This document shows, piece by piece, positions 2,127 to 63,855 of a stretch of 64,000 bases of DNA. The stretch lies in the IMG/VR virus record IMGVR_UViG_3300039008_000243, positions 1 through 64,000 of that record; one strand, 5' to 3'. Under the pieces are notes generated by a model. That model worked only from the letters and a program-made list of their open reading frames with translations. It ran no database searches and was not told the DNA's origin. Source of the stretch: a virus. Positions within the stretch are counted from its first letter, which is position 1. The number at the start of each line of letters is the position of its first letter. The position numbers and the translations under genes were made by a program.

Positions 2127-2171
2127 CAATATTGTCTACCCAATATTGCTAGCACATTCATGACAATATTG
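2127..2171. promoter_or_regulatory. Three copies of the 8-bp palindrome CAATATTG upstream of the truncated Bro-N-like gene (operator-like array)
   Basis: CAATATTG at 2127-2134, 2141-2148 and 2164-2171, directly 5' of the remnant start codon at 2115 on the minus strand. Confidence 0.35.
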
Positions 2172-2285
2172 CAAAGGAAAGATTGATATAATTTAAATTC
2201 AATAAGCATTTTTACTCATCCTAACAAAACACCCTTTGGCTCTAATTTGACCAGGGGAGGCTTTTTATTGAGGCTCTAGGGGGAA

Positions 2286-2894
2286 TTAATTAAGGGGTCT
2301 TAAGCGTTTTTCTTGGCGCTTTAGACACTCTTCCCGACCCTTTTTAAGCTCAATTAACCAACATATATGTCTTAGGGTTTCTTCATCAGGAAATTCCCCT
2401 TCGCCATGCCAATCTACCCACGGATTTCTGGGATCTCTGGAATAGGCTTTGATTTTCTTTGGGGGTTCCTTCTTATTGGCTGGTTTAAGGGCTTGAACCT
2501 CCTCCCTGAGAGCTTTTAGCTGGTCTGTGATGTCTGAAGCAGTTAAATGTGTTTCTCCCGTTTCGACCAGGGTTCGGATATGTATGTTGCACCAAACCCC
2601 AAATTTAGGAGATAGCCATCTCGCTATCTCAATTGCTACTAAAGGATGCCCCCAAGTACTGGCATCACCCCCAATATTATTAGTGGTTGAAACAACCAAT
2701 CCATCAGGGGGGATAATAATCCCCCCCTGCTCTGTAAGGGTTTCAGCCAACGCTTTTAAATAGTCTTTTGACTGTGTAGTTTTTAACCAATCTTTTAATT
2801 TCTTTCCGTGAGTTCTACAAAGAGATCCAAGATTCACATACTGATCTGAATCGCGTTGTTCAACTGTTTGACCCTCATATGTTAAAATTGTCAT
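2286..2894 (-). CDS. KilA-N domain protein
   Basis: N-terminal pattern YVNLGSLCRTHGKKLKDWL...STWGHPLVAIEIARWLSPKFGVWCNIHI is typical of a KilA-N DNA-binding domain, followed by a charged C-terminal half. Confidence 0.7.
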   Translation of the reverse strand: MTILTYEGQTVEQRDSDQYVNLGSLCRTHGKKLKDWLKTTQSKDYLKALAETLTEQGGIIIPPDGLVVSTTNNIGGDASTWGHPLVAIEIARWLSPKFGVWCNIHIRTLVETGETHLTASDITDQLKALREEVQALKPANKKEPPKKIKAYSRDPRNPWVDWHGEGEFPDEETLRHICWLIELKKGREECLKRQEKRLRPLN

Positions 2895-3453
2895 GATTAT
2901 TAGCCTAATCCTACTAGGTGAACGTCTGGTAGCTGATAAGAGCCAAGTTATGAGCTTGGCTGCTACTCAATTCATTCTAACAAAAATCCCCCTTTGGCTC
3001 TAATTTGACCAGGGGGATTTTTCTTTTCTGTAATTCCAATATACCCACAAACATCCCTTTAGAGGCATCTGTGAGCCTCATGAAAGCTTTTCACCCTACT
3101 CCCATGCCCTATTCGATGGTTTGCCCAAACAAGAGCCTTTAAAGAGCCAAATAAGAGCCTCATGAAAATCCCCTGTAGCCTAACAAGTTTTCATAAGTAT
3201 TTGTACTCACTAAGAGGGATGTAACAGGAGCCGCCTTAGCGACAACCTGAAAAAGCTTTTATTTAATTACGTAGTTAATTCCTGTGTCCGCTCAATAATC
3301 CCCTGTGTGCAAAATATATGACCAGGGTACTTAGAACTTTTGGAAATTTTTCTAAATATCATAAAAGCTTTTAAAAGTCAATCCCCATTCTGTATCATAA
3401 CCTGATACATTTAGCCGCTTCTTAGTGACTGGATTTTGCTGTTTTAATCAATT

Positions 3454-3822
3454 TAGTGACTTTTTAGTGAGAATTTTAAGCCATTTTAAGCCCTCAAAAG
3501 CAGTCTGTGACCAGGGTTTGGAATTTTTTAGTGAAAAAACGGTTTTCACACATGAAAAAAGTTGAAGAAATCGGACAATACGGAATATACCATAGATATA
3601 TATCTATGTATATATCATATATAATAAATATATATATATATACTTATATAATTTCTATTTCCTTCTATACTTACCTCTTACTTAGAATCTTCTCTTTCAA
3701 ATCCGTAAAATGGGCTTTTTTGGTAAAAAGGCTTTGTTCAAATTTGCAAACCCTGGTCAGGTCTACTTTTGAGGCTATTTTAGGGGTCTTCAAGTGGCTT
3801 AAAATTCTCACTAAAAAGTCAA
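3454..3822. repeat. Long imperfect inverted repeat (arms about 3454-3520 and 3748-3822) flanking about 230 bp of (TA)-rich DNA. Origin-like or partition-site-like structure, copy 1
   Basis: There is a perfect 26-bp arm core, tgactttttagtgagaattttaagcc (3457-3482), versus its reverse complement (3796-3821). An inner 13-bp pair tgaccagggtttg / caaaccctggtca lies at 3508-3520 and 3748-3760. An 18-bp palindrome catagatatatatctatg sits at 3591-3608, with runs of atatatatat. TAGTGA boxes occur at about 3423, 3454, 3465 and 3528. The arms are about 28/30 identical to those of the 31.6-kb locus. Confidence 0.6.
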
Positions 3823-4079
3823 TAAATTCGTTAAAATTATGGGTAAATACGTAGAGTTTTTTAGGTTTTTTTAGAAAAATATACCAAATTTTTTTAAGCA
3901 ATATTACTTGTAAGTATGCTACAAGACTTAAAGAGCTTTAATGAGCTTTTATTTAGGCTGTTAAAAGGCTCTTATTAGCTGTTTAATAGCTTGATAATAA
4001 TTATTTAACTAATTTTAGGTTCTCACGCGCGCGACCTTTTTGAATTACGTAGTTAATTAGATAAACTTATATAAGGCTA

Positions 4080-4108
4080 TTGACAGAATCTTGTTTTTGT
4101 TGTATTAT
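4080..4108 (+). promoter_or_regulatory. Sigma70-type promoter for the RHH gene
   Basis: TTGACA (4080-4085), 17-bp spacer, TATTAT (4103-4108). The AATTACGTAGTTAATT site lies just upstream at 4043-4058. Confidence 0.6.
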
Positions 4109-4156
4109 GTACTTAATGAATTTTTTACGTGAGAGCTTTTTTAAAGTTTTATAAAA

Positions 4157-4381
4157 ATGCCCAAAAACACCCAAGAATTAGAACAGCAACCCAAAGCAAA
4201 GCCAGGGAAAAAACCTTTTACTGATCGCAGCCTAATTAAGACCTCTGTGTCAGTCGCTTTATCCCCTGCTATCAGAGAAAAATTAGACGAGTTGGCATTA
4301 TTAGATAATTGTTCTCGTTCTCAAATAATCACAAATATTATCGAAAACTTTTTTGAAAAACGTAGCAACACCGGTCGATAA
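4157..4381 (+). CDS. Ribbon-helix-helix (CopG/Arc/MetJ-like) DNA-binding protein
   Basis: 74 aa. A basic N-terminal tail is followed by beta-strand TSVSVALSP, helix AIREKLDELALLDN and helix CSRSQIITNIIENFF. Confidence 0.65.
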   Translation: MPKNTQELEQQPKAKPGKKPFTDRSLIKTSVSVALSPAIREKLDELALLDNCSRSQIITNIIENFFEKRSNTGR

Positions 4382-4445
4382 TTTTTTGTGTTATACTTAA
4401 AGCAACTAAAAATTATTTGAAATTTTTATTTGAAATTTTTTAAAA

Positions 4446-4829
4446 ATGGCTACAAAAGATTTTCAAAGGCGTGAGGCAGATTTTGTACAGACAGAAGCAG
4501 TGACTGTTACTTGGCAAGCAAATGAAGTAGGTACTGATTTATGGCTAGATGCTACAACCACTATTGCAACAGTAGATTACACCCTGGTCAGGTATGTTAT
4601 TCCTTTGGCAGTATCTAATCAGGAATTGTTGCCTGATGGTAACTACACTCAGGCATACCAGACTGGAGGAGTTTCTGTTTATGTTTTTGATGGTACAGAG
4701 ACTGCTTATGCAGCCGGGACAGCTCCTACCTTATCTGAAGGCACAAAGCTTTCTGAAGCTCCATCATCCTCTAAAACTTTGTTTGATATCGATGCTTACC
4801 TTTTAGCTAGGGGTGTTGCCAGAAGTTAA
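4446..4829 (+). CDS. Hypothetical protein (early cassette)
   Basis: 127-aa ORF with non-junk composition, followed by a strong terminator at 4868-4912. Confidence 0.55.
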   Translation: MATKDFQRREADFVQTEAVTVTWQANEVGTDLWLDATTTIATVDYTLVRYVIPLAVSNQELLPDGNYTQAYQTGGVSVYVFDGTETAYAAGTAPTLSEGTKLSEAPSSSKTLFDIDAYLLARGVARS

Positions 4830-4867
4830 TCCCCTGGTCTCTTAAGCTTTTTTGTAGATTAATTTGA

Positions 4868-4912
4868 GCTTACAAAACTGTTCTAAAGGTTTTGTAAGCT
4901 TTTTGGTTTTTT
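4868..4912 (+). terminator. Rho-independent terminator
   Basis: 11-bp stem gcttacaaaac / gttttgtaagc, 10-nt loop, then tttttggtttttt. Confidence 0.75.
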
Positions 4913-4949
4913 ATAAGAATATTGGGTGAAAACTTTTTTTGGAAATCTA

Positions 4950-5015
4950 TTGACAATTAATTAACTAGTTAATAAGATAGGTACATAAGATAAAAAACAA
5001 ACAGGGAATACTAAA
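4950..5015 (+). promoter_or_regulatory. Early promoter-operator-leader cassette P1
   Basis: TTGACA 4950-4955, 17-bp spacer containing the palindrome ATTAACTAGTTAAT (4960-4973), TAAGAT 4973-4978. The conserved leader is gtacataagataaaaaacaaacagggaatactaaaATG. Confidence 0.75.
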
Positions 5016-5822: not shown

Positions 5823-5887
5823 TTGACAATTAATTAACTAGTTAATAAGATAGGTACATAAGCAAAAAACAAACAGGGAATACTAAA
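5823..5887 (+). promoter_or_regulatory. Early promoter-operator-leader cassette P2
   Basis: TTGACA 5823-5828, palindrome ATTAACTAGTTAAT 5833-5846, TAAGAT 5846-5851. The leader is near identical to that of P1. Confidence 0.75.
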
Positions 5888-7478: not shown

Positions 7479-7543
7479 TTGACAATTAATTAACTAGTTA
7501 ATAGAATAAGTACATAAGACAAAAACAAACAGGAAATACGGAA
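7479..7543 (+). promoter_or_regulatory. Early promoter-operator-leader cassette P3
   Basis: TTGACA 7479-7484, palindrome 7489-7502, TAGAAT 7502-7507, conserved leader gtacataagacaaaaacaaacaggaaatacggaaATG. Confidence 0.75.
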
Positions 7544-9430: not shown

Positions 9431-9481
9431 CAAGTATAATCTTAATGAGTAATTGTATTATATTAACTAGTTAATTGTCAA
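9431..9481 (-). promoter_or_regulatory. Promoter-operator P5 (minus strand) for the deaminase operon
   Basis: TTGACA (complement of 9476-9481) followed by the palindrome ATTAACTAGTTAAT (9462-9475). It is 4 bp shorter than P1-P4, so the -10 assignment (TATAAT / TAATAC) is ambiguous. Confidence 0.5.
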
Positions 9482-9482
9482 T

Positions 9483-9581
9483 TTATAAGAATATTGGGTG
9501 AAAACCCCGTGTCTTTAGACCGGGGAGTGCCAAAAACTGTAGGTATTTGACACTCCCCGTGTCTTTAGATCGGGGAGTGTC
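9483..9581 (+). repeat. Hairpin-repeat element, two tandem units
   Basis: Unit A is ttataagaatattgggtgaaaaccccgtgtctttagaccggggagtgcc (9483-9531). Unit B is gacactccccg-tgtctttagat-cggggagtgtc (9549-9581), a perfect 11-bp stem. Segments can pair alternatively (A3'/B5'). Unit A recurs inverted at 63801-63848. Confidence 0.7.
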
Positions 9582-12922: not shown

Positions 12923-14215
<1,293 letters not shown>

Positions 14216-17200
14216 TTATATATCTCCAGCATTAATAGTTACAACCTGGTTAACAAACCAGTTAAAGGGTGTGAATGTTAGGGGCTCGCCTGTAAAAGTT
14301 AATAAGCCTGGATCAGAACTTATTAGATTTATATTAACATTTTCTAAAGGTTGTCTAGACAGTCTCACAGACAGAATAGTTTGGCTGTTTTCTGTCATAA
14401 CAATAGATGATGGGTTGATAATTACACTTATGTCTGAGTTATTCTCAGTATTTACTAAAATTCTATCTAAAGAAGCCAAGACCAGGGGATTAAATTCTCT
14501 TATCTCCCCTGAAATGTTAAAAATACCATATTCACTTGTGCTTACCACGGTCTCTATGTTTGGTACAGAATCAAAAACCCAAATACCCTCATATTCTGGA
14601 TAATTGAATAGTGTGGTATCAAAAGTAAAAGGAGTATTTAGTCCTTTGATATTATTATAAAATCTTATAAATTCTTTTGTTTTTTCACTACATAGGTTAT
14701 TATATCTGAAAGTAATTTTTCTATTCTTGGGTGATCTTTGCAAAGATAATCTTTGTTCGTTACCATCTGCATAACTTTGATATATATCAGGTATTTTTAC
14801 CTCCTCAATAGATTCTGAATAGTGGAAAGGCTGATTTTGATATGGAGGCACTAAAATAGGATATATAGGTAAATCGTCAATAGTATTTGGTTGTTGAATT
14901 AGAGCCTCGTTTATGATTATTTGGCTATAGAATTGAATAATCCAACCGTGCCAGATAGGAAAATATTCATTTTCACTCCCTACAGTGGGTTGTAAGCCTG
15001 CCCATGAGCCTTCCATAATCCCTGTATCTACAAAATTAGATGTAATGTAATCAAAACATCTATTGAGAGTACTTAAAGAGCTCTCCGGAAGTACCCCTGC
15101 AATATTACAATTAAGAGCTGTTAATCCTATGAGAGCTGAGTAACCAGGGTTTTCCGACTCTATTACAACTGCATCCCCAAACCTGGTCGGTGGTTGTAAA
15201 TTAGGTAGATTATTATCAAAAAAGTCTTTAATAAAATTCAAAAAGTTTTGTAAAATGCCTAACACTGAACCATCCTGAGTTTTTTGGTAGTATATGGCTA
15301 TTTCTAAATATGATTTATATATTATTTCTGCATCATTTTGGTTGTTTAATCTAAAATTATTCCAATCAAATCCATTTACTTTTTCAACATTTATAAAAGA
15401 TAGGATTAAGAATAAGCTAGGAGTATTTAAAACTTTAGAATTACTTCCATTTATTCTTGAATTTTCAGGGTTATAAGGATAAAATTCTCCATATAATAAG
15501 TTATTTGTAAAGTCTATATTATACCTTTGATTAGATAATTGTAATAATTGTTTTAAATTATTTGAAGCTGTTCCATCCGATAATCCTTGATGGGATAAAT
15601 TATACTTAATGTTTTCACTTACATCAGTGGAATTAAGTTCAGGAATAACCCCTGGGGCAAAATTTAGAGTATTTAAAGAGTTATTTGGGCTTTTTATATA
15701 CTCAATCTCCCAAATATAACTAACATTATTATTCAAATTAGATATTTTAAAATCTTTTATCCCTAACCCTATACTTAAAATTTCTAAAGGCTTTCCAATT
15801 GCGAATATATGAAGTTCTGTGTTATCTTCTAGTGCAGTTATTTTTATTTTCCTTAACTTTTGGTTATTTATTCCAAAAGAAATCCCCCAAGAGCTTGAAA
15901 ACGTTGTGTAGGTTATTGGAGATTGTACCAAGTTTAATGTGTATGTATCATACCCCACTGTCTCAAAAGAAACTAATATTGACTCATTAGTTTTATAAGT
16001 AATTTCAGGTAAAAGATAATCAAAAGCAATTTTGGTAAATTCAAAACTTTCTTCCTGATTAAAATTAATTACAAAAATTCCTGTATTGATTGTAAAAGAC
16101 TTGTAGTTAACGGTTTCATTAATTTTAGTTACGATTCCATCGCTAATAAAATCATTTTTTACTGAGAATGTATCTTGTTTGATATTAGTAAAATCTGAGG
16201 AAGAATATGAATAATCAGATAGGGTATTATTTATAATTTTATAACTTTTCCATTTATTTTCTAAACAAACTTCAATTACAGTCTCCCCCTGGTCACAACG
16301 ATGTCTGCATACAAAATTTGTGTTAAAATTTAATTCATAAACTTGATTAATTAAGGTAGCTTTGGCTTGGGGATTATTAGGGGTTAAATCTAATTCAATT
16401 GAATTAGTTTGGGGGTTTATTGAGTTTAATGTGCTGTTTATTAGGTTTAGTCTACAATAATTTAAAATTCTATCATTTTTTTTCTCAAAAATAGGGGTTA
16501 CTGGAATAGTATAAATATTTAGCCGATTTCTTAAAAGATTTACAAGGTTTTGAAAATTTGTATTTGTATTTGTATTATTCTGTAAATATAATTCATAAGC
16601 TTTTATTATAGACCAATAAATACCCAAAGGACTTTCCGATTTATCCGTTAAAATAGGATTTAGACTAAACCAACCCTCTAAATTGTTAACCAGGGTAGGG
16701 GCATTGATGTTAGTTATATCTTCTAGGGTATATATGATGTTCAAATCCCCTGTAAAGGTGGTATTTTTCAGAATTATTGTGCCATTAGCTTCTAGGGTGG
16801 TTTCTAACTCACTATAGATGCCAATTGTTCTCATGCGAAAACCATTAGTAACCCAATAATCTATCTCAAAGATTTCCCCATCTACAGAGGTTAGAGTATT
16901 TTTATATAGAAAATCTCCATCAAAAACGCAAAATACTCTACTAAGATTTGCAGGTAGATTAGCGACTCCATTTACAAAACTTACAGTTGCATACTCCCCG
17001 GATGCAAAGGTATCTCCAACCAAGGTTTCTTCCCTGGTCAGATTGTTTAAAGCTATTATCTGGTTCTGTAATTGGAAATTATTATCAGCCGGGTTCGCAG
17101 GTACTAAAGTGTTGGCAAAGTAGTTTATAATAGAGTTTAATTTGTTCAAAGATAGGGTTTCCCAGTCTACCTCTGTAGTGGCTAAAAAAGCTAAAAAATA

Positions 17201-30469: not shown

Positions 30470-31546
30470 CTAATTAACTTTTTTTTTCTCAGCTACTTTT
30501 GCTTTTGCAGCTCTTGTTTGAATTTTACTTGATTGCTTAACTATATTGGTCAATAAAGCGACCAGGGTGTTAGGTGCATTAGCCTCTGATTCGGCATCTA
30601 AGATAAAACTCACTACAATATCTAAATCTTCATGTACATTTGCAGCTAAACCTTTAAGCTCCCCAAAAGTCCTGGTTTCTTTTTCTTCTTGTGTTGATGA
30701 ACTATCAGAAATTGCCTGATCAGTGTCGAGGGAATTTTCTACTAGAGATTCTGTGGGAGTTGTGGTTAATCTTTCAACAGCCTTCCTCACATCATGGGAT
30801 TTTACAGTAATTCTACCCTCATCCATAGCAAAGTCTGCTGATTCTTCTAACAATTGTGTAACAGAAATATTAGCTAACTCTTTGTTATTCTTCAAAGCTT
30901 TAACAACTTCTCCAGCAGCCGTCACATTCAATTCTTCATTATCTACCCATTTAACAATTTCGGGGTAATCACACTCAAAAACAGCTCTTAATTGATAAAA
31001 CCGGGTTGGACTAATTCCATAAGCTTCCGCAATTAAGAGCTTTGCTTTATCTTCTGCCTTATCTTTTTTATTAGCATCTAGAAGTTTTTTAACTTTTTCA
31101 AAGCGAGGATCCTCGTTTTGAGCTAATTTGATAGCATAAGGCAAAGAATCAATAATACCTTGCCATTTTTCACGTAAAGAAATTCTTTTATCAAGATTAC
31201 CAAAACTTATCTGCAAAGAATTTAAGGTTAAAGGGTCATTTGCAAGCTTCTCTGTTAATAGAATAAAGGGAATCTCTGAATTGATTTCAGAGCCATCTTT
31301 GACTAGATTCTCTAAATTGTAGTGACGGCGGTTTCCTTCAATAATTTTGTACAAAACTTGGGGGTTTTCTGGGTTTGTATGGGGAATACATAAAAGAGGA
31401 TCAATAATACCCCCAAGTTTTTCTATAGAATCTTTTAGTTCTGGATAATCTAAATTCTGTCTAAAGTTTTCAGTATTTCTTTCAAACTGTTGATAATCGG
31501 CAAAAGAAATAGGGGACTCTCCAATAGTGTTTAAGAGGTTACTCAT
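30470..31546 (-). CDS. ParB/Srx-fold N-terminal domain protein (ParB-like)
   Basis: IIEGNRRHYNL matches the ParB GxxRxxA/arginine-patch box. A helix-rich middle is followed by an acidic/lysine-rich tail. No ParA-like ATPase nearby. Confidence 0.7.
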   Translation of the reverse strand: MSNLLNTIGESPISFADYQQFERNTENFRQNLDYPELKDSIEKLGGIIDPLLCIPHTNPENPQVLYKIIEGNRRHYNLENLVKDGSEINSEIPFILLTEKLANDPLTLNSLQISFGNLDKRISLREKWQGIIDSLPYAIKLAQNEDPRFEKVKKLLDANKKDKAEDKAKLLIAEAYGISPTRFYQLRAVFECDYPEIVKWVDNEELNVTAAGEVVKALKNNKELANISVTQLLEESADFAMDEGRITVKSHDVRKAVERLTTTPTESLVENSLDTDQAISDSSSTQEEKETRTFGELKGLAANVHEDLDIVVSFILDAESEANAPNTLVALLTNIVKQSSKIQTRAAKAKVAEKKKVN

Positions 31547-31579: not shown

Positions 31580-31608
31580 ATTATCCATAGAAAATTTAAA
31601 ATTGTCAA
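31580..31608 (-). promoter_or_regulatory. Sigma70-type promoter for the parB-like/replication operon
   Basis: On the minus strand: TTGACA (31603-31608), 17-bp spacer, GATAAT (31580-31585). The -35 box is the outermost part of the left inverted-repeat arm. Confidence 0.55.
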
Positions 31609-31982
31609 CTAAAAAACCTAATTTTCCTCTTTTTTAACTTTTTTAGTGACTTTTTAGTGAGAATTTTAATCCTTTGAAACTCTTGTAACTAAGAACTGAC
31701 CAGGGTTTCAGAGTTTTTTAGCCGAAAAATACTATTTACATATTTCCCAAAAAGTAAAAAGACTATTCTATATATATACATATTTTTATATAACTATATA
31801 TTCATATAAAAATATGTATATATAATAAACTAAATTTTTAGAAATCCATATGGTAAGATTTGGTAAGAAAATCATTGAAATTCTTGCTATATAAAGGTTT
31901 CAGCGAATAAAATACCTTAAAATTCTCACTAAAAAGTCCCTAAAAAAGTTAAAAAAGAGGAAAATTAGGTTTTTTAGTTGAC
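31604..31982. repeat. 66-bp near-perfect inverted repeat flanking 247 bp of (TA)-rich DNA. Origin-like or parS-like structure, copy 2
   Basis: Arms at 31604-31669 and 31917-31982 have one mismatch (tagtgac vs tagggac). A nested perfect 21-bp inverted repeat lies at 31771-31791 and 31804-31824. Tandem TAGTGA boxes are present in the arms. The structure lies between divergent replication operons. Confidence 0.7.
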
Positions 31983-32007
31983 AAAACCCTGGTCAATTCT
32001 CTATAAA
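31978..32007 (+). promoter_or_regulatory. Sigma70-type promoter for the primase/helicase operon
   Basis: TTGACA 31978-31983 (end of the right repeat arm), 18-bp spacer containing CCTGGTC, TATAAA 32002-32007. An operator-like site ATTAACTAGTCAAT follows at 32011-32024. Confidence 0.55.
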
Positions 32008-32033
32008 ATTATTAACTAGTCAATCAAATACAT

Positions 32034-34694
32034 ATGGATCACCAAGATTTTGAGCTCATTCCTGCAAAGAGTATGGATATACTTTCTTTGTTTGGTCATA
32101 AGTCTATATATATCCCCTGCAAGGCTATAGAAGGTAAGAAAGCGGCTATCCTTCAAAACTGGTCACAAAAAGCTTTGAAGCCCGAAGAATTGCCTCCTAA
32201 CTCTGAGATGATAGCCTTACGCTTAGATGACTATGTAGCTATTGATTGCGATGGTGAATCAGCTTTAAATTACTTTATAGAATCTTTTGACCCTGGACAA
32301 ATCAAGACTTTTTATATATCCTCCATAGAGGCTAGAGGATGTTACATATTTAAAAAGCCTGAAAATTGGGAGTATAAGCTCTTTACAGTTCAAATTAATG
32401 AGGAATTATTAGAGATCCGCTCAGGTTCCGGTTGTTATCAAGTTATCCAAGGTATACACCCTGAAACCAAAGACTATTACTGGACAAATAATCTACCCCC
32501 TATAGAACTTAATTCTGAGGTTCTTCAATGGATTTCTCAACTTAAAAGACTCAAAGCTTTCCCAGAAAAAATTAAAAAATCTTATGAAACTATCTATTTA
32601 GATAAAAAAAACTTACCTGAAGACTTTAAAGTAAATTTACTTGATTTTGTTTCAAATGAAAACGCGAAGAATTATAAAAAGGGTGTAAAAACTTTTCGGA
32701 ATAACTCTGCATTTAACTTAGCTTGTGATTTGTTAGGATGTGAAGAGATATTCGATAATGCAGATATACCTATACAAACACCCCCAGAACAACTATTCCA
32801 AGAGTTTTGTGATAAATGTCCACAAACAGATTTTACAGCCACAGAAATTATTCAAACCTGGTCAAGTGCTAAGTCTCAACATAGGGAACCTTCTATATCT
32901 GCACAGACTTTTAATTATAAATGGCAAACACTTAGAAACCAATTAGGTTTAGATATAAAAAAACCTGTGGAAGAAAAGCCACAGGAAATAAAAACAACTA
33001 GCAATCAAAAAAACATTATGATCAGGTTGTATCAGATTATCAAAGATTTTGATACAAGTCAACTGCAAGAATTTTTTGATTTAGATGTTATTGTCAAAGA
33101 GCTCGCTATCAAGAATGAGTTATATGAGTTTGAATTCATTCAATACCTAAAAAAAGAGCTTCATATAAAAATACAGAAAGAGTCTGAACTGATTTTTCTA
33201 GGTACTGGCCTCCAAAATGTCAACTCTTTTAAGATAAAATCATTCTCAAAAACAAGATTTTATGAAGATTTTCAACTACATAAAAGTCTCAATGCATACC
33301 CTTTTGAGTTTTTATTTATCAACTTATTAACAGCCGTTTCTAGTCTTATTCCTCATAATCACAGATTATTTTGGAATAGTTCTGGCTCAGTCAACTCAAA
33401 TATTTTCACTATTCTCATTGGATCTGTGGCTTCAGGTAAGTCTAGGTTGATGGAGGATTTTTTAGATACCTGGTCAGAGCGGACTTTGATAGATAATAAT
33501 GCTTTTCATGATAACTACAAAAAATGGGAAGATAATTACAAAAAGTTCAAGAAAAAGTCTGTAGCAGCTCAGATAGAGTACTTTGAAGAACAAGGGGATG
33601 ATGTTCCTACAGGGGATACTACTCCAGAAGACAAATGGTTAGAAATTAATCCAGAACCCCAAGAGATATTACCTTTAAGCATTCGAGACAGCACTTTAGA
33701 GGGCATTCGGGATAATTGTTCAAAATTTGATAAGACCGACAGGGGTTTGCTTTGGGCGGTTGATGAATTATCTACAGCTCTGTCTACCTTGAGAGTACAT
33801 AGTAAGCAAAATAATGACCCCCTATCTAGTTTGCTTCCTATTTATAACGGAGATGTCACAAATCATTCCCGTGTATCTGACCAGGGTAAACGATTTGGTT
33901 ATTATAATGTCTCTTTGCTAACAACGACTCAATCTACTAGATTACTCAAGTTCTTTGATATTTCAGACCCCTCTGGTATTTTATCACGATTTTTATTCAT
34001 GCACCTAAAAGAAGACATAGAAACACCTTTATGCCATTCTATGTCTATTACAAGAGCACCCAAGCTAAAAGAGTTGCTGAGTGAGTATATTGATAGTTTT
34101 CAGTTAAAAATTCATGCAAATAATCAAGATGAAGCTTATTATCATTTATCTAAAGAGGCTTTTTATATCTTTTCGCAATTATATGACAGAATCAATGCAG
34201 TAGCTACTGAGATGCGACAACATGAAGTTGCCCCTGGAATTTCTCAATGGTTAAAAAGACTTCCTACTCATTTTGCTAAGCTAATTTTTGTGTGGCACCT
34301 TATTAAGTATGCAGAGGGGATAGAACCTAATAAGAATATAGTAAGCTCTGAAACAGTTAGTGAGATTGTACCAGTAATACTTTGGTTAAAAAATCAAACT
34401 GAGAGTGTACTTAAGCAAGTTATCCAATTATCCTTAAATAATTTAAAACCTGATGTACAAGAAGCTACTTTGGCTTTTAGAGATTTGCTGTATAAAAGCA
34501 ATAATGTTATCACAATGGATAGTTTTAGAAAATCAGGTTTACCTAAAAAACTTTGCTTTAGAGAGATTTATATACCTAGAAGCACACAAAGAGCTACTTT
34601 AAACGCGGCTGAAATCCAAGAAGTTTTTAGAGATATGGAAAGATACGGCTTGGGACACCATAATAAAGAGAAGAAAATTTTTACAGGGATTTAA
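32034..34694 (+). CDS. Bifunctional primase-polymerase / DUF3987-type (D5-like) helicase
   Basis: N-terminal prim-pol motifs VAIDCDGES and IQGIHPET. Walker A GSVASGKS, Walker B LLWAVDELS. 886 aa. Confidence 0.8.
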   Translation: MDHQDFELIPAKSMDILSLFGHKSIYIPCKAIEGKKAAILQNWSQKALKPEELPPNSEMIALRLDDYVAIDCDGESALNYFIESFDPGQIKTFYISSIEARGCYIFKKPENWEYKLFTVQINEELLEIRSGSGCYQVIQGIHPETKDYYWTNNLPPIELNSEVLQWISQLKRLKAFPEKIKKSYETIYLDKKNLPEDFKVNLLDFVSNENAKNYKKGVKTFRNNSAFNLACDLLGCEEIFDNADIPIQTPPEQLFQEFCDKCPQTDFTATEIIQTWSSAKSQHREPSISAQTFNYKWQTLRNQLGLDIKKPVEEKPQEIKTTSNQKNIMIRLYQIIKDFDTSQLQEFFDLDVIVKELAIKNELYEFEFIQYLKKELHIKIQKESELIFLGTGLQNVNSFKIKSFSKTRFYEDFQLHKSLNAYPFEFLFINLLTAVSSLIPHNHRLFWNSSGSVNSNIFTILIGSVASGKSRLMEDFLDTWSERTLIDNNAFHDNYKKWEDNYKKFKKKSVAAQIEYFEEQGDDVPTGDTTPEDKWLEINPEPQEILPLSIRDSTLEGIRDNCSKFDKTDRGLLWAVDELSTALSTLRVHSKQNNDPLSSLLPIYNGDVTNHSRVSDQGKRFGYYNVSLLTTTQSTRLLKFFDISDPSGILSRFLFMHLKEDIETPLCHSMSITRAPKLKELLSEYIDSFQLKIHANNQDEAYYHLSKEAFYIFSQLYDRINAVATEMRQHEVAPGISQWLKRLPTHFAKLIFVWHLIKYAEGIEPNKNIVSSETVSEIVPVILWLKNQTESVLKQVIQLSLNNLKPDVQEATLAFRDLLYKSNNVITMDSFRKSGLPKKLCFREIYIPRSTQRATLNAAEIQEVFRDMERYGLGHHNKEKKIFTGI

Positions 34695-51764: not shown

Positions 51765-51827
51765 TTGACAATTAATTAACTAGTTAATATAATAGGTACA
51801 TAAGACAAAAACAACTGGTTACTCAAA
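51765..51827 (+). promoter_or_regulatory. Early promoter-operator-leader cassette P4 (inside the late structural region)
   Basis: TTGACA 51765-51770, palindrome ATTAACTAGTTAAT 51775-51788, TATAAT 51788-51793, leader gtacataagacaaaaacaac.... Confidence 0.75.
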
Positions 51828-59928: not shown

Positions 59929-61225
59929 GAAAAAGTTGCCTAAAGGGGGGATACTTTTACCTTACCAAAAAGAATGGTTGTTAAATTCTAAAAAATATCC
60001 AGTTTCTATTTGGGAGAAATCTAGGCGTATTGGAGCTTCTTGGGTAGTAGCCTGTGAAGCTGTTATGAATGCTAGCAAAAAAAACCATCCTGTAAATACT
60101 TATTACATATCTTATGAAAAAGATATGACAATGCAATTTATAAAAGATTGTACTTTTTTTGCTAAATTTTTTCAATCTTTGATAAAAGAAATCTACAAAG
60201 AAAAGATTATAGATGATTTTGGTAAAGATGCTTTAATTTTCAGAATCAGATTTAGTAATGGTTGTGAGATAGCCTCTTTATCTAGTAATAGTCGAAACTT
60301 AAGAAGTAAAAAAGGTAACGTAGTTATAGATGAGGCTGCTTTTGTGGATGATTTAGAAGAGGTCTTAAAAGCAGCTATAGCCCTTACCATATGGGGGGGA
60401 CAGATTAAAATTTTAAGCACACATCAAGGCAAAAATAATAGATTTAATAAATTAGTTTTTGAAGGTAGAGAGAATACTGATAACTACGTTCAAAAAACTT
60501 CTTTTATGGATGCAATCGACCAGGGTTTATATGAAAGATTATGCCTTTCAGGCACTTACCAAAATATAAAAGAAGAAAAACAAAAATTTATAAATAAAAT
60601 TTATAATATTTACAAAGATAATGCAGATGAAGAATTAGATGTTAAACCTAGAGAAGAGAGTGCCTTATCAGTATTCAGATCCACTTGGTTTATTATTTCG
60701 TCGGAGATACCAACTACATTTGATTACCTTATAAGAGCTTGGGATACAGCAGCTACTGACAAAGATGATAGCTGCTATACTGTGGGGACTCTTTTAGGGC
60801 TTAAAGGGCAGCAGATATACATTCTAGAATGGGATTACATTAAAGCTAGTGCGAGTGAAACACAGGAAAAAATAATTCAAGTTGCACGTATGGATGGCAC
60901 CGAAGTCGTCATCTATGTAGAACTTGAAGGGGGCAGCCAACCTATATTATGGCTTGAAAATAGCCTACAAAGTGTTTTAAAGGGGTATGAAATAATTGGA
61001 CAGAAAGTTATAGCCTCCAAGACTATGAGGGCTGTTTTAGCCGCCCGTGAGGCTCGTACACAGCCTTTTATAGTAGCAGAAACTGAATGGGCAAAAACTT
61101 ATATTGAAACTATATGTGAGTTTACGGGTTTAAAAAAGAAAGAGCCACTGATTAATGATTCAGTAGACTCTTTAAGTTTAGGTGTTAATGCTCTAATTGA
61201 AGGGTATAATCCTTTACTGGTCTAA
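59849..61225 (+). CDS. Terminase large subunit
   Basis: KSRRIGASWVVACEAV (KsRQ-G-s/t ATPase block), Walker B VVIDEAAFV, and nuclease-domain Asp block AWDTAATDKDD. An in-frame TTG at 59936, just after the upstream stop, is an alternative start. Confidence 0.8.
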   Translation: MLTIPQLTKVTIRTSSRTHKENSSEFKKKLPKGGILLPYQKEWLLNSKKYPVSIWEKSRRIGASWVVACEAVMNASKKNHPVNTYYISYEKDMTMQFIKDCTFFAKFFQSLIKEIYKEKIIDDFGKDALIFRIRFSNGCEIASLSSNSRNLRSKKGNVVIDEAAFVDDLEEVLKAAIALTIWGGQIKILSTHQGKNNRFNKLVFEGRENTDNYVQKTSFMDAIDQGLYERLCLSGTYQNIKEEKQKFINKIYNIYKDNADEELDVKPREESALSVFRSTWFIISSEIPTTFDYLIRAWDTAATDKDDSCYTVGTLLGLKGQQIYILEWDYIKASASETQEKIIQVARMDGTEVVIYVELEGGSQPILWLENSLQSVLKGYEIIGQKVIASKTMRAVLAAREARTQPFIVAETEWAKTYIETICEFTGLKKKEPLINDSVDSLSLGVNALIEGYNPLLV

Positions 61226-63656: not shown

Positions 63657-63717
63657 TTAGTATTCTCCGTGTTTTTCTTATGTAAACATAATAATTGATT
63701 AACTAGTTAATTGTCAA
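63657..63717 (-). promoter_or_regulatory. Early promoter-operator-leader cassette P6 (minus strand)
   Basis: TTGACA (complement of 63712-63717), palindrome ATTAACTAGTTAAT 63698-63711, TATTAT at 18 bp. The leader ttacataagaaaaacacggagaatactaaATG resembles P1-P4. Confidence 0.65.
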
Positions 63718-63763: not shown

Positions 63764-63792
63764 TTGACAATTAATTAATTAATTAATAGACT
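63764..63792 (+). promoter_or_regulatory. Divergent sigma70-type promoter P7 with (TTAA)n spacer
   Basis: TTGACA 63764-63769, 17-bp spacer attaattaattaattaa, TAGACT 63787-63792. It points into the hairpin-repeat element and out of the window. Confidence 0.5.
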
Positions 63793-63800
63793 AGGGACTT

Positions 63801-63848
63801 GACACTCCCCGGTCTAAAGACACAGGGTTTTCACCCAATATTCTTATA
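63801..63848 (-). repeat. Inverted copy of hairpin-repeat unit A
   Basis: The reverse complement, ttataagaatattgggtgaaaaccctgtgtctttagaccggggagtgtc, differs at 2 positions from 9483-9531. Confidence 0.7.
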
Positions 63849-63855
63849 AAAAAAA

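Follow-up and report, generated by a model that had tools for sequence, protein, structure and literature searches.

An inverted repeat between divergent replication genes

The window analysed here is a 64 kb stretch of a 69,015 nucleotide (nt) metagenomic contig (IMG/VR record IMGVR_UViG_3300039008_000243) from an uncultivated phage of about 69 kb. Between a gene for a 358 amino acid (aa) protein on the reverse strand (30470-31546) and a gene for an 886 aa primase-helicase on the forward strand (32034-34694) there is a 487 nt gap of 22% G+C, the second lowest value among the intergenic gaps longer than 150 nt. The two genes are divergent, as had been claimed in the original prediction, which was made from the letters of the sequence, and the gap between them contains the longest inverted repeat of the window (31602-31984). 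This element is considered here as a candidate replication origin.

The inverted repeat is real, but each arm is 68 nt rather than the 66 bp first reported, being two bases longer (31602-31669 and 31917-31984). The arms are 99% complementary, with one mismatch (31647, T against G in the opposite arm; blastn E 1.4e-31), and are separated by 247 nt. From outside to inside, the left arm consists of the -35 hexamer of a leftward promoter, an A/T-rich tract, and a 28 nt double-box module, and the right arm is its mirror. Within the core there is a nested repeat (31771-31791 and 31804-31824) with the perfect 21 bp stem that had been described and a 12 nt loop, which extends to 27 nt arms at 93%. The (TA)-rich palindrome here (31771-31824, 54 nt) is a proposed DNA-unwinding or cruciform centre, and its axis, at 31797.5, is 4.5 nt off the axis of the outer repeat at 31793. 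The G+C content of this centre is 6.7-11.7%, the lowest 60 nt value across the 64 kb, and its (TA)n tract is one of just two in the window. As a single strand, the element has a folding energy of -91 kcal/mol (z = -17).

Each arm had been said to carry two TAGTGA boxes. This holds for the left arm, where there are two exact TTTTTAGTGA boxes 11 nt apart, but only one box is exact in the right arm, the outer one being TAGGGA, which is the mismatch between the arms. The boxes are part of the 28 nt module TTTAGTGACTTTTTAGTGAGAATTTTAA, present at 31642-31669 on the forward strand, with its two boxes facing the centre, and at 31917-31944 on the reverse strand, with one mismatch. There are four copies of this module within one mismatch in the window, where none would be expected, and they are confined to this element and to a second one described below, always as an inward-pointing pair and with a box period of 11. 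The box pairs are about 100 nt either side of the central palindrome and are the proposed initiator-binding repeats. A TGACCAGGGTTT box (31697-31708, forward strand) is located about 30 nt inside the left module, with equal spacing in the second element, and a second GACCAGGGTT(T) box (31985-31995, reverse strand) is just outside the right arm, within the spacer of the primase promoter. An exact 19-mer from the box module has no match in IMG/VR; the single match to it in a metagenome collection is inside an HNH-type gene and was judged to be due to chance.

The right arm ends 50 nt 5' of the start codon of the primase-helicase gene. The name primase is borne out by a match to DUF3987 (E 5e-21, 75.8 bits), with a slightly sub-threshold match to Prim-Pol (E 1e-3, 20 bits against 22.8). 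The protein therefore carries a PrimPol part and a DUF3987/MCM-like AAA+ helicase and is, by analogy with the systems compared at the end, the proposed initiator that would recognise the element. It has full-length matches to many phage PrimPol/DUF3987 proteins, while its sequence matched no solved structure. In a model made from 26 homologues, with a predicted local distance difference test (pLDDT) score of 84, the N-terminal fold matches those of pRN1 ORF904 (9aam, 3m1m, 1rni) and NrS-1 PrimPol with a Foldseek probability of 1.0, while the ATPase part matches MCM (0.98-1.0) and ORC/Cdc6, and weakly the SCCmec Cch helicase, PriRep5 not being listed. A small C-terminal helix/beta-hairpin domain (residues 806-885) has the order helix-strand-helix-helix-helix-strand-strand in the model, which is compatible with a winged helix. 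On its family matches and the model, the protein would be of the self-loading initiator kind represented by pRN1 ORF904 and the PriRep proteins of the staphylococcal pathogenicity islands (SaPIs).

The 358 aa protein on the other side had been called ParB-like, and the element had been offered as either an origin or a centromere-like site. In the latter case it would be a partition site bound by this protein, and it is true that two independent ParB models touch residues 24-76, including the GxRR motif within IIEGNRRH, and that the repeats adjoin the gene. Both matches are, however, far below the curated cut-offs (Pfam PF02195, E 0.12, 12.9 bits against 26.3; TIGR00180, E 0.01, 15.6 against 58.45). 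Among the approximately 46 open reading frames (ORFs) scanned there is no ParA-type ATPase; the adjacent 379 aa protein has no family match and no Walker A motif that is visible by eye. Nor is there an integrase, another serine or tyrosine recombinase, or any plasmid-prophage function among the ORFs scanned, the gene content looking lytic, and the boxes are direct repeats, spaced by 11 nt and not palindromic, in contrast to sites of the parS type. A centromere is thus very improbable here, that half of the prediction being unsupported, and the ParB-like label depends on sub-threshold matches. The 358 aa protein is nevertheless an alternative candidate for the binding of the boxes. It has no homologues in the protein index and no match in PDB, and its single-sequence AlphaFold model (pLDDT 38) is unusable.

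Two outward-facing promoters had been predicted with the outer arm ends as their -35 hexamers, and both are found as pattern matches, each at 11 of 12 positions. The leftward one, of the sigma-70 type (TTGACA-17-GATAAT, 31580-31608, reverse strand, with GATAAT at 31580-31585), is 34 nt before the start codon of the 358 aa gene and is predicted to serve this gene and the helicase/PolA operon. The rightward one (TTGACA-18-TATAAA, 31978-32007, forward strand, with TATAAA at 32002-32007) is 27 nt before the ATG of the primase-helicase operon. All eight of the intergenic matches of at least 11/12 in the window are either a short distance upstream of a plausible gene start or in the promoter-operator family described below, and it is this placement that makes the promoter calls credible for this phage. 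Inside the 247 nt core, promoter-like matches reach just 9/12 and none is strong. The window has a G+C content of 32.6%, and a Shine-Dalgarno sequence is absent from most of its genes, yet the promoters are of the classical TTGACA/TATAAT type.

This layout favours the main rival to an origin, which is that the element is purely a transcriptional control region, its boxes binding a regulator of the two divergent promoters. Such a role is considered unlikely, but it has to be taken seriously. The regulator could be the 358 aa protein, an RHH-like protein encoded at 4157-4381, or a KilA-N protein, perhaps with looping across the bendable (TA)n centre, and the long identical arms would then be a duplicated promoter-upstream region. 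Both arms end in the -35 hexamers of strong promoter matches, the boxes are about 35-60 nt upstream of these hexamers, which is a typical position for an upstream regulator, and the phage clearly employs operator-controlled promoters.

The operator-like ATTAACTAGTCAAT that had been noted directly after the -10 hexamer of the primase promoter (32011-32024, forward strand) does belong, with one mismatch, to an operator family, TTAACTAGTTAA, that is found across the phage and is associated with early-type promoters. There are eight sites of this family in the window against 0.95 expected, all of them intergenic. Six of them are in the -35/-10 spacer of a repeated promoter, five being perfect and one, at 63764, more degenerate. 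These near-identical promoters have the form TTGACA-ATTAATTAACTAGTTAAT-TAnAAT, with the 12 bp palindrome TTAACTAGTTAA in the spacer; the family is found at 4950-4991, 5823-5864, 7479-7520, 9452-9481 (reverse strand), 51765-51806, 63688-63717 (reverse strand), and 63764-63805, and looks like one repressor-controlled, possibly early, regulon. Beside promoters of this family there is also a 52 nt inverted repeat at 96% (9482-9533 and 63799-63850, 54 kb apart; also 4907-4933 and 63827-63853), with a third partial copy at 4910-4933. It holds a CCCCGTGTCTTTAGACCGGGG hairpin and may be a shared leader or terminator module.

A near match to the DnaA box (8/9) at 31581 had been pointed out at the leftward promoter. 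With 25 one-mismatch matches in the window, where 20 would be expected, this is at the level of chance, and a DnaA-dependent origin was rejected because there is no cluster of DnaA boxes but only this single match.

A second element and the origin of the arms

A search of the whole window with the locus, at low stringency, identified a paralogous element at 3442-3836, 28 kb away. It is in a 1,262 nt non-coding gap, again between divergent genes, in this case a KilA-N gene (2286-2894, reverse strand) and the small RHH-like ORF (4157-4381, forward strand). Its arms (3442-3506 and 3772-3836) are 65 nt and match at 83%, its TTTAGTGACTTTTTAGTGAGAATTTTAA modules form an inverted pair (3452-3479 and 3799-3826), and its TGACCAGGGTTT boxes are symmetric (3508-3527 and 3740-3759) around an (AT)n centre (3592-3658), with all of the axes falling at 3633.5-3639. 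In either element the axes of the nested repeats agree within about 5 nt. The two elements hold the only (TA)n tracts of the window and two of its three 60 nt segments of lowest G+C, the segment at 60561 tying with the second centre at 8.3%. Homology between the two is not limited to the module. The alignment of their left halves continues across the TGACCAGGGTTT box and a TTTTTTAG..AAAAA box, the third and in part degenerate, and on the right the flank of the second element can be aligned to the outer portion of the arm of the first. The KilA-N gene is also bracketed by a 32 nt direct repeat (AAAxCxCCCTTTGGCTCTAATTTGACCAGGGG, at 2226 and 2984), near an IS200/IS605-type pair at the left edge of the contig (17-1886) that comprises a TnpB (OrfB_IS605 with a Cas12f-like TNB domain) and a Y1 TnpA.

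The second element bears on the regulatory explanation in both directions. It is in the main regulatory gap, beside the KilA-N and RHH-like genes, which would suit a site for a regulator. However, its modules are at least about 250 nt from any strong promoter, and the 28 nt modules there adjoin no promoter of a quality comparable to those at the first element. What the two elements have in common is therefore boxes with a symmetric AT-rich palindrome, and not boxes with a promoter. A regulator site would have no need of the symmetry and the (TA)-rich centre that are common to both elements and to the palindrome found in a relative. For the same reason the proposal that the structure controls both operons symmetrically is weakened. 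The promoter layout at the first element is symmetric as stated, but the boxes of the second are away from promoters, and the operator is present only at the primase promoter.

That the arms of the second element have diverged to 83% while its 28 nt modules remain nearly intact points to selection on these sites and not to passive homogenisation. This is of consequence for another alternative, that the palindrome is maintained by recombination, either as an inverton-like structure in which the 247 nt core is flipped or as a structural by-product of template switching and gene conversion whose sequence would have no specific function. The 99% identity of the arms over 68 nt would suggest ongoing homogenisation, and the core is asymmetric, its TGACCAGGGTTT box being one-sided with the partner outside the right arm, which could be the trace of a rearrangement. 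Assembly graphs also break at the arms: the identical sequence was recovered as Logan contigs of SRR21418661, and both of these stop within the arms, long inverted repeats of this kind being a cause of breaks in short-read phage assemblies. The ends, at 31631 and 31955, are k-1 = 30 nt into the arms, as an assembly with k=31 gives for any inverted repeat, and are therefore not evidence for two orientations. The ORFs scanned include no serine or tyrosine recombinase, the only relevant matches being the TnpA/TnpB pair 30 kb away, and the core is without a strong internal promoter. With the retention of the modules in the second element, this makes maintenance by recombination improbable, and an inverton switch in particular is unsupported, with no site-specific recombinase among the ORFs scanned and no promoter-like match above 9/12 in the core. 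At the other end of the 17.5 kb Logan contig is a (TAT)10.7 microsatellite (14128-14159), overlapping the ORFs at 12923-14215 and 14058-14603, and is thus, by this coincidence, a further repeat that breaks the assembly.

Two further candidates were set aside. A hairpin telomere or protelomerase site is not in keeping with the failure to find the enzyme, with a core that is not palindromic throughout, or with the presence of two copies. A miniature inverted-repeat transposable element, or an element derived from an insertion sequence, does not fit because the two elements share internal modules but not termini, and there is no target duplication at 31600-31601 and 31985-31986.

The locus in relatives and the case for an origin

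Exhaustive searching by HMMER, with the primase-helicase as query, gave 135 proteins. P0003 is the nearest of them, with 37% identity along its entire length. The 6.3 kb contig that encodes it (L003) has, in a divergent gap and immediately 5' of the primase gene, a quasi-palindrome some 700 nt long. This structure has arms (1356-1602 and 1813-2059) of 247 nt that match at 83%, with nested repeats of 33 and 38 nt around a TA-rich centre, and it folds as a single strand with -204 kcal/mol (z = -23). It has no sequence similarity to the element in the window and is without its boxes. Position and architecture are therefore kept where the sequence is not, as would be expected if an origin co-evolves with its initiator. 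This palindrome stops about 100 nt short of the primase gene, which also speaks against a purely regulatory role.

The divergent gene on the same contig (392-1039) encodes a 215 aa protein, the last 130 residues of which are 38% identical to the C-terminus of the primase (2162-4924; E 2e-18). The shared C-terminal region suggests, from this similarity, a DNA-binding domain that acts on the DNA between both genes, and the 215 aa protein, encoded on the other side of the palindrome, may represent the putative origin-binding domain in free-standing form. No paralogue of the primase C-terminus was found in the phage of the window. On a 27.9 kb JGI contig of this lineage, which carries P0005, the primase gene is preceded by a divergent gap of 1.35 kb.

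Of the two halves of the original claim, that for an origin is the best-supported reading. It is favoured by the paralogous element, by the giant palindrome at the same place in the relative, and by the PrimPol-helicase gene next to the element. It is therefore proposed, on circumstantial evidence and with about even confidence, that the element is a bidirectional replication origin that shares its DNA with the divergent promoters of the replication genes. In such an origin the C-terminal domain of the primase-helicase, or for example the 358 aa neighbour, would bind the boxes on both sides, and two helicase rings would be loaded in opposite orientation. The (TA)n centre would melt or be extruded as a cruciform, its opening perhaps aided by the negative supercoiling behind two outward-moving RNA polymerases (the twin-domain effect). 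The PrimPol domain would then prime the exposed strands and the PolA of the phage would replicate in both directions. Since each arm terminates on its outer side in a -35 hexamer, the transcription of both operons may also respond when the element is occupied or extruded. The second element could be a second origin or a cis-acting partner site for the same protein.

Several observations weigh against an origin. More distant relatives of the primase (on contigs L004-L007, L009, and L010; 25-30% identical) have no convincing large palindrome beside the gene, although there are long gaps upstream of it in L004-L007 and L010. GC skew in the window follows gene orientation, and thus the direction of transcription (regression R2 0.383), with no replication signal; adding a strand switch at 32 kb gives an R2 of 0.385 and one at 4 kb an R2 of 0.408, a small gain, and this lack of a sign of an origin suits the regulatory alternative. 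Identity of 99% across 68 nt exceeds what protein binding needs. As about 40 nt of each arm are promoter-proximal, a recent duplication and inversion of the promoter region would explain much of the structure. The boxes are some 100 nt from the AT-rich centre that they would serve, and a profile of the C-terminal domain has no significant match in PDB or Pfam, its likeness to a winged helix coming from the model.

A more specific proposal, considered unlikely, is that the two palindromes work as a device that couples origin and promoter, in a phage lineage not described before. One initiator would bind box pairs at two loci, which would be an early and a late origin or an origin and its distant cis partner, and its binding, or extrusion of the (TA)n cruciform, would directly switch both divergent replication operons. 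The near-perfect identity of the arms would in this case be maintained by the need of the arms to pair.

On contig L009, which encodes one of the relatives, four TACAACAAA repeats (14-61, spacing 10-13 nt) are found at the very start, at a contig break. They precede the primase gene by about 500 nt and the small ORF in front of that gene by about 340 nt. Another region of that contig, 3' of the primase gene (3148-3689), has a perfect 17 nt inverted repeat (CTTAAAAAGTCACTCGT) around a 508 nt segment. The 17 nt repeat has the 11-mer AGTGACTTTTT in common with the box module of the window, which may be chance.

The CCTGGTC sequence in the primase promoter, originally listed among the features of the locus, is not specific to it but belongs to a genome-wide octamer, GACCAGGG (consensus T-G-ACCAGGG-G/T). 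The window contains 53 copies (for example at 2249, 19445/19504, 31698, and 31987), where 0.57 would be expected; they are on either strand, in every reading frame, in sense and antisense, and also in intergenic sequence. Its ACCAGGG core is present at 0.65-1.3 copies per kb on the contigs L004-L007 and L010, which are from other samples, about the density in the window, and as a single copy in the closest relative. Inverted pairs of GACCAGGG frequently form hairpins downstream of genes. The octamer resembles a genomic signature of the DNA-uptake-sequence or Chi type, and a literature search for it gave no match.

The phage itself is a tailed phage, judged from its structural genes, with the terminase large subunit, portal, major capsid, and cement proteins encoded in the window together with a 3,593 aa tape-measure-like protein. 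Its replication genes comprise a family-A DNA polymerase, a superfamily 2 (SF2) helicase, and the PrimPol-DUF3987 primase-helicase, and there is also a DHH phosphoesterase; genes of nucleotide metabolism include ThyX, dCMP deaminase, thymidylate kinase, and a Dam-type methylase. The locus and the primase have no match among 50,697 phage records (megablast, tblastn), and IMG/VR likewise yielded no relatives when it was scanned with the two flanking proteins, P0003, and an alignment of seven sequences. In a word index of 5.8 billion proteins the primase and the 358 aa protein match only themselves, as does P0003, so that the primase and P0003 are both singletons in that search. Rfam and tRNA scans returned nothing.

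Were the origin reading true, it would provide an entry point to replication, in the form of a 0.4 kb fragment, a 28 nt candidate module, and a candidate initiator, for a lineage that has no cultured or database relatives. It would also provide an example from a bacterial virus of PrimPol-helicase replicases that assemble on palindromic or stem-loop origins, an idea for which the tests so far are those with the archaeal plasmid pRN1 and, in a related form, with the SaPIs. The pair of elements and the 700 nt palindrome of the relative would allow the boxes and the palindromic structure to be tested directly against each other.

Comparison with known origin systems

The combination of inward box pairs with a spacing of one helical turn, a centre that is palindromic and AT-rich, arms that can pair, and adjacency to a gene of the initiator type is, by analogy, that of an origin of the self-loading primase-helicase type. 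The closest parallels are in the SaPIs, where Pri and Rep, whether fused or separate, bind short repeats through a C-terminal winged helix. The origin there is AT-rich at its centre and has two or more repeats per side, in opposite directions, the loading of two hexamers being thought to take place on either side (PMC9371898). As in these islands, the gene for a fused primase-helicase initiator adjoins the element, a centre of 7-12% G+C has two inward-facing boxes on either side (four in all, one of them mismatched), and the protein of the window has a small domain after the ATPase. The differences are in placement and scale. The SaPI origin is downstream of rep, whereas the element here is upstream of its gene and overlaps divergent promoters, and its repeats of 10-11 nt are embedded in 68 nt identical arms, about 100 nt from the AT-rich centre.

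In pRN1 a 100 nt stem-loop beside orf904 is required and its integrity matters (PMC4234260). Equivalent stem-loops were predicted by the same authors beside the PrimPol-helicase genes of the Bordetella phages BIP-1 and BPP-1, and bidirectional initiation was proposed (PMC4234260). The replicase of the window has the domain order of ORF904 (PrimPol, superfamily 3 (SF3) helicase, and winged helix), although its own C-terminal domain is, in the model, no more than compatible with a winged helix, and matches it in its N-terminal fold; a long repeat able to form a stem-loop is beside the gene in both. The element here is not, however, a simple 100 nt hairpin but a 68 bp stem around a 247 nt core with a palindrome of its own. 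It is upstream of the gene, where the stem-loop of pRN1 is downstream, it is present in two copies per genome, and it contains iteron-like boxes, which are said to be absent from pRN1.

The presence of two dispersed copies of one repeat module in a single phage genome has its counterpart in the phages P4 and SPP1. In P4 the repeats bound by the alpha primase-helicase are those of ori and of another site in cis (crr). In SPP1, G38P binds both oriL and oriR (PMC3485210). The initiators are nevertheless unrelated in sequence to the protein described here, and the sites in those phages are arrays of direct repeats, where that of the window is a large palindrome.

A similar arrangement is also seen in the core origins of SV40 and the papillomaviruses, in which initiator sites of opposite orientation flank a palindrome and an AT tract, between divergent promoters, and serve to assemble two helicase hexamers. 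This likeness is an analogy of mechanism only; the sizes and the sequences are unrelated and no homology is claimed. The element is best filed with the palindromic or iteron-flanked origins that have PrimPol-helicase initiators, as a new member unrelated in sequence, and is unusual for that class in having a diverged second copy and promoter hexamers that are built into its arms.

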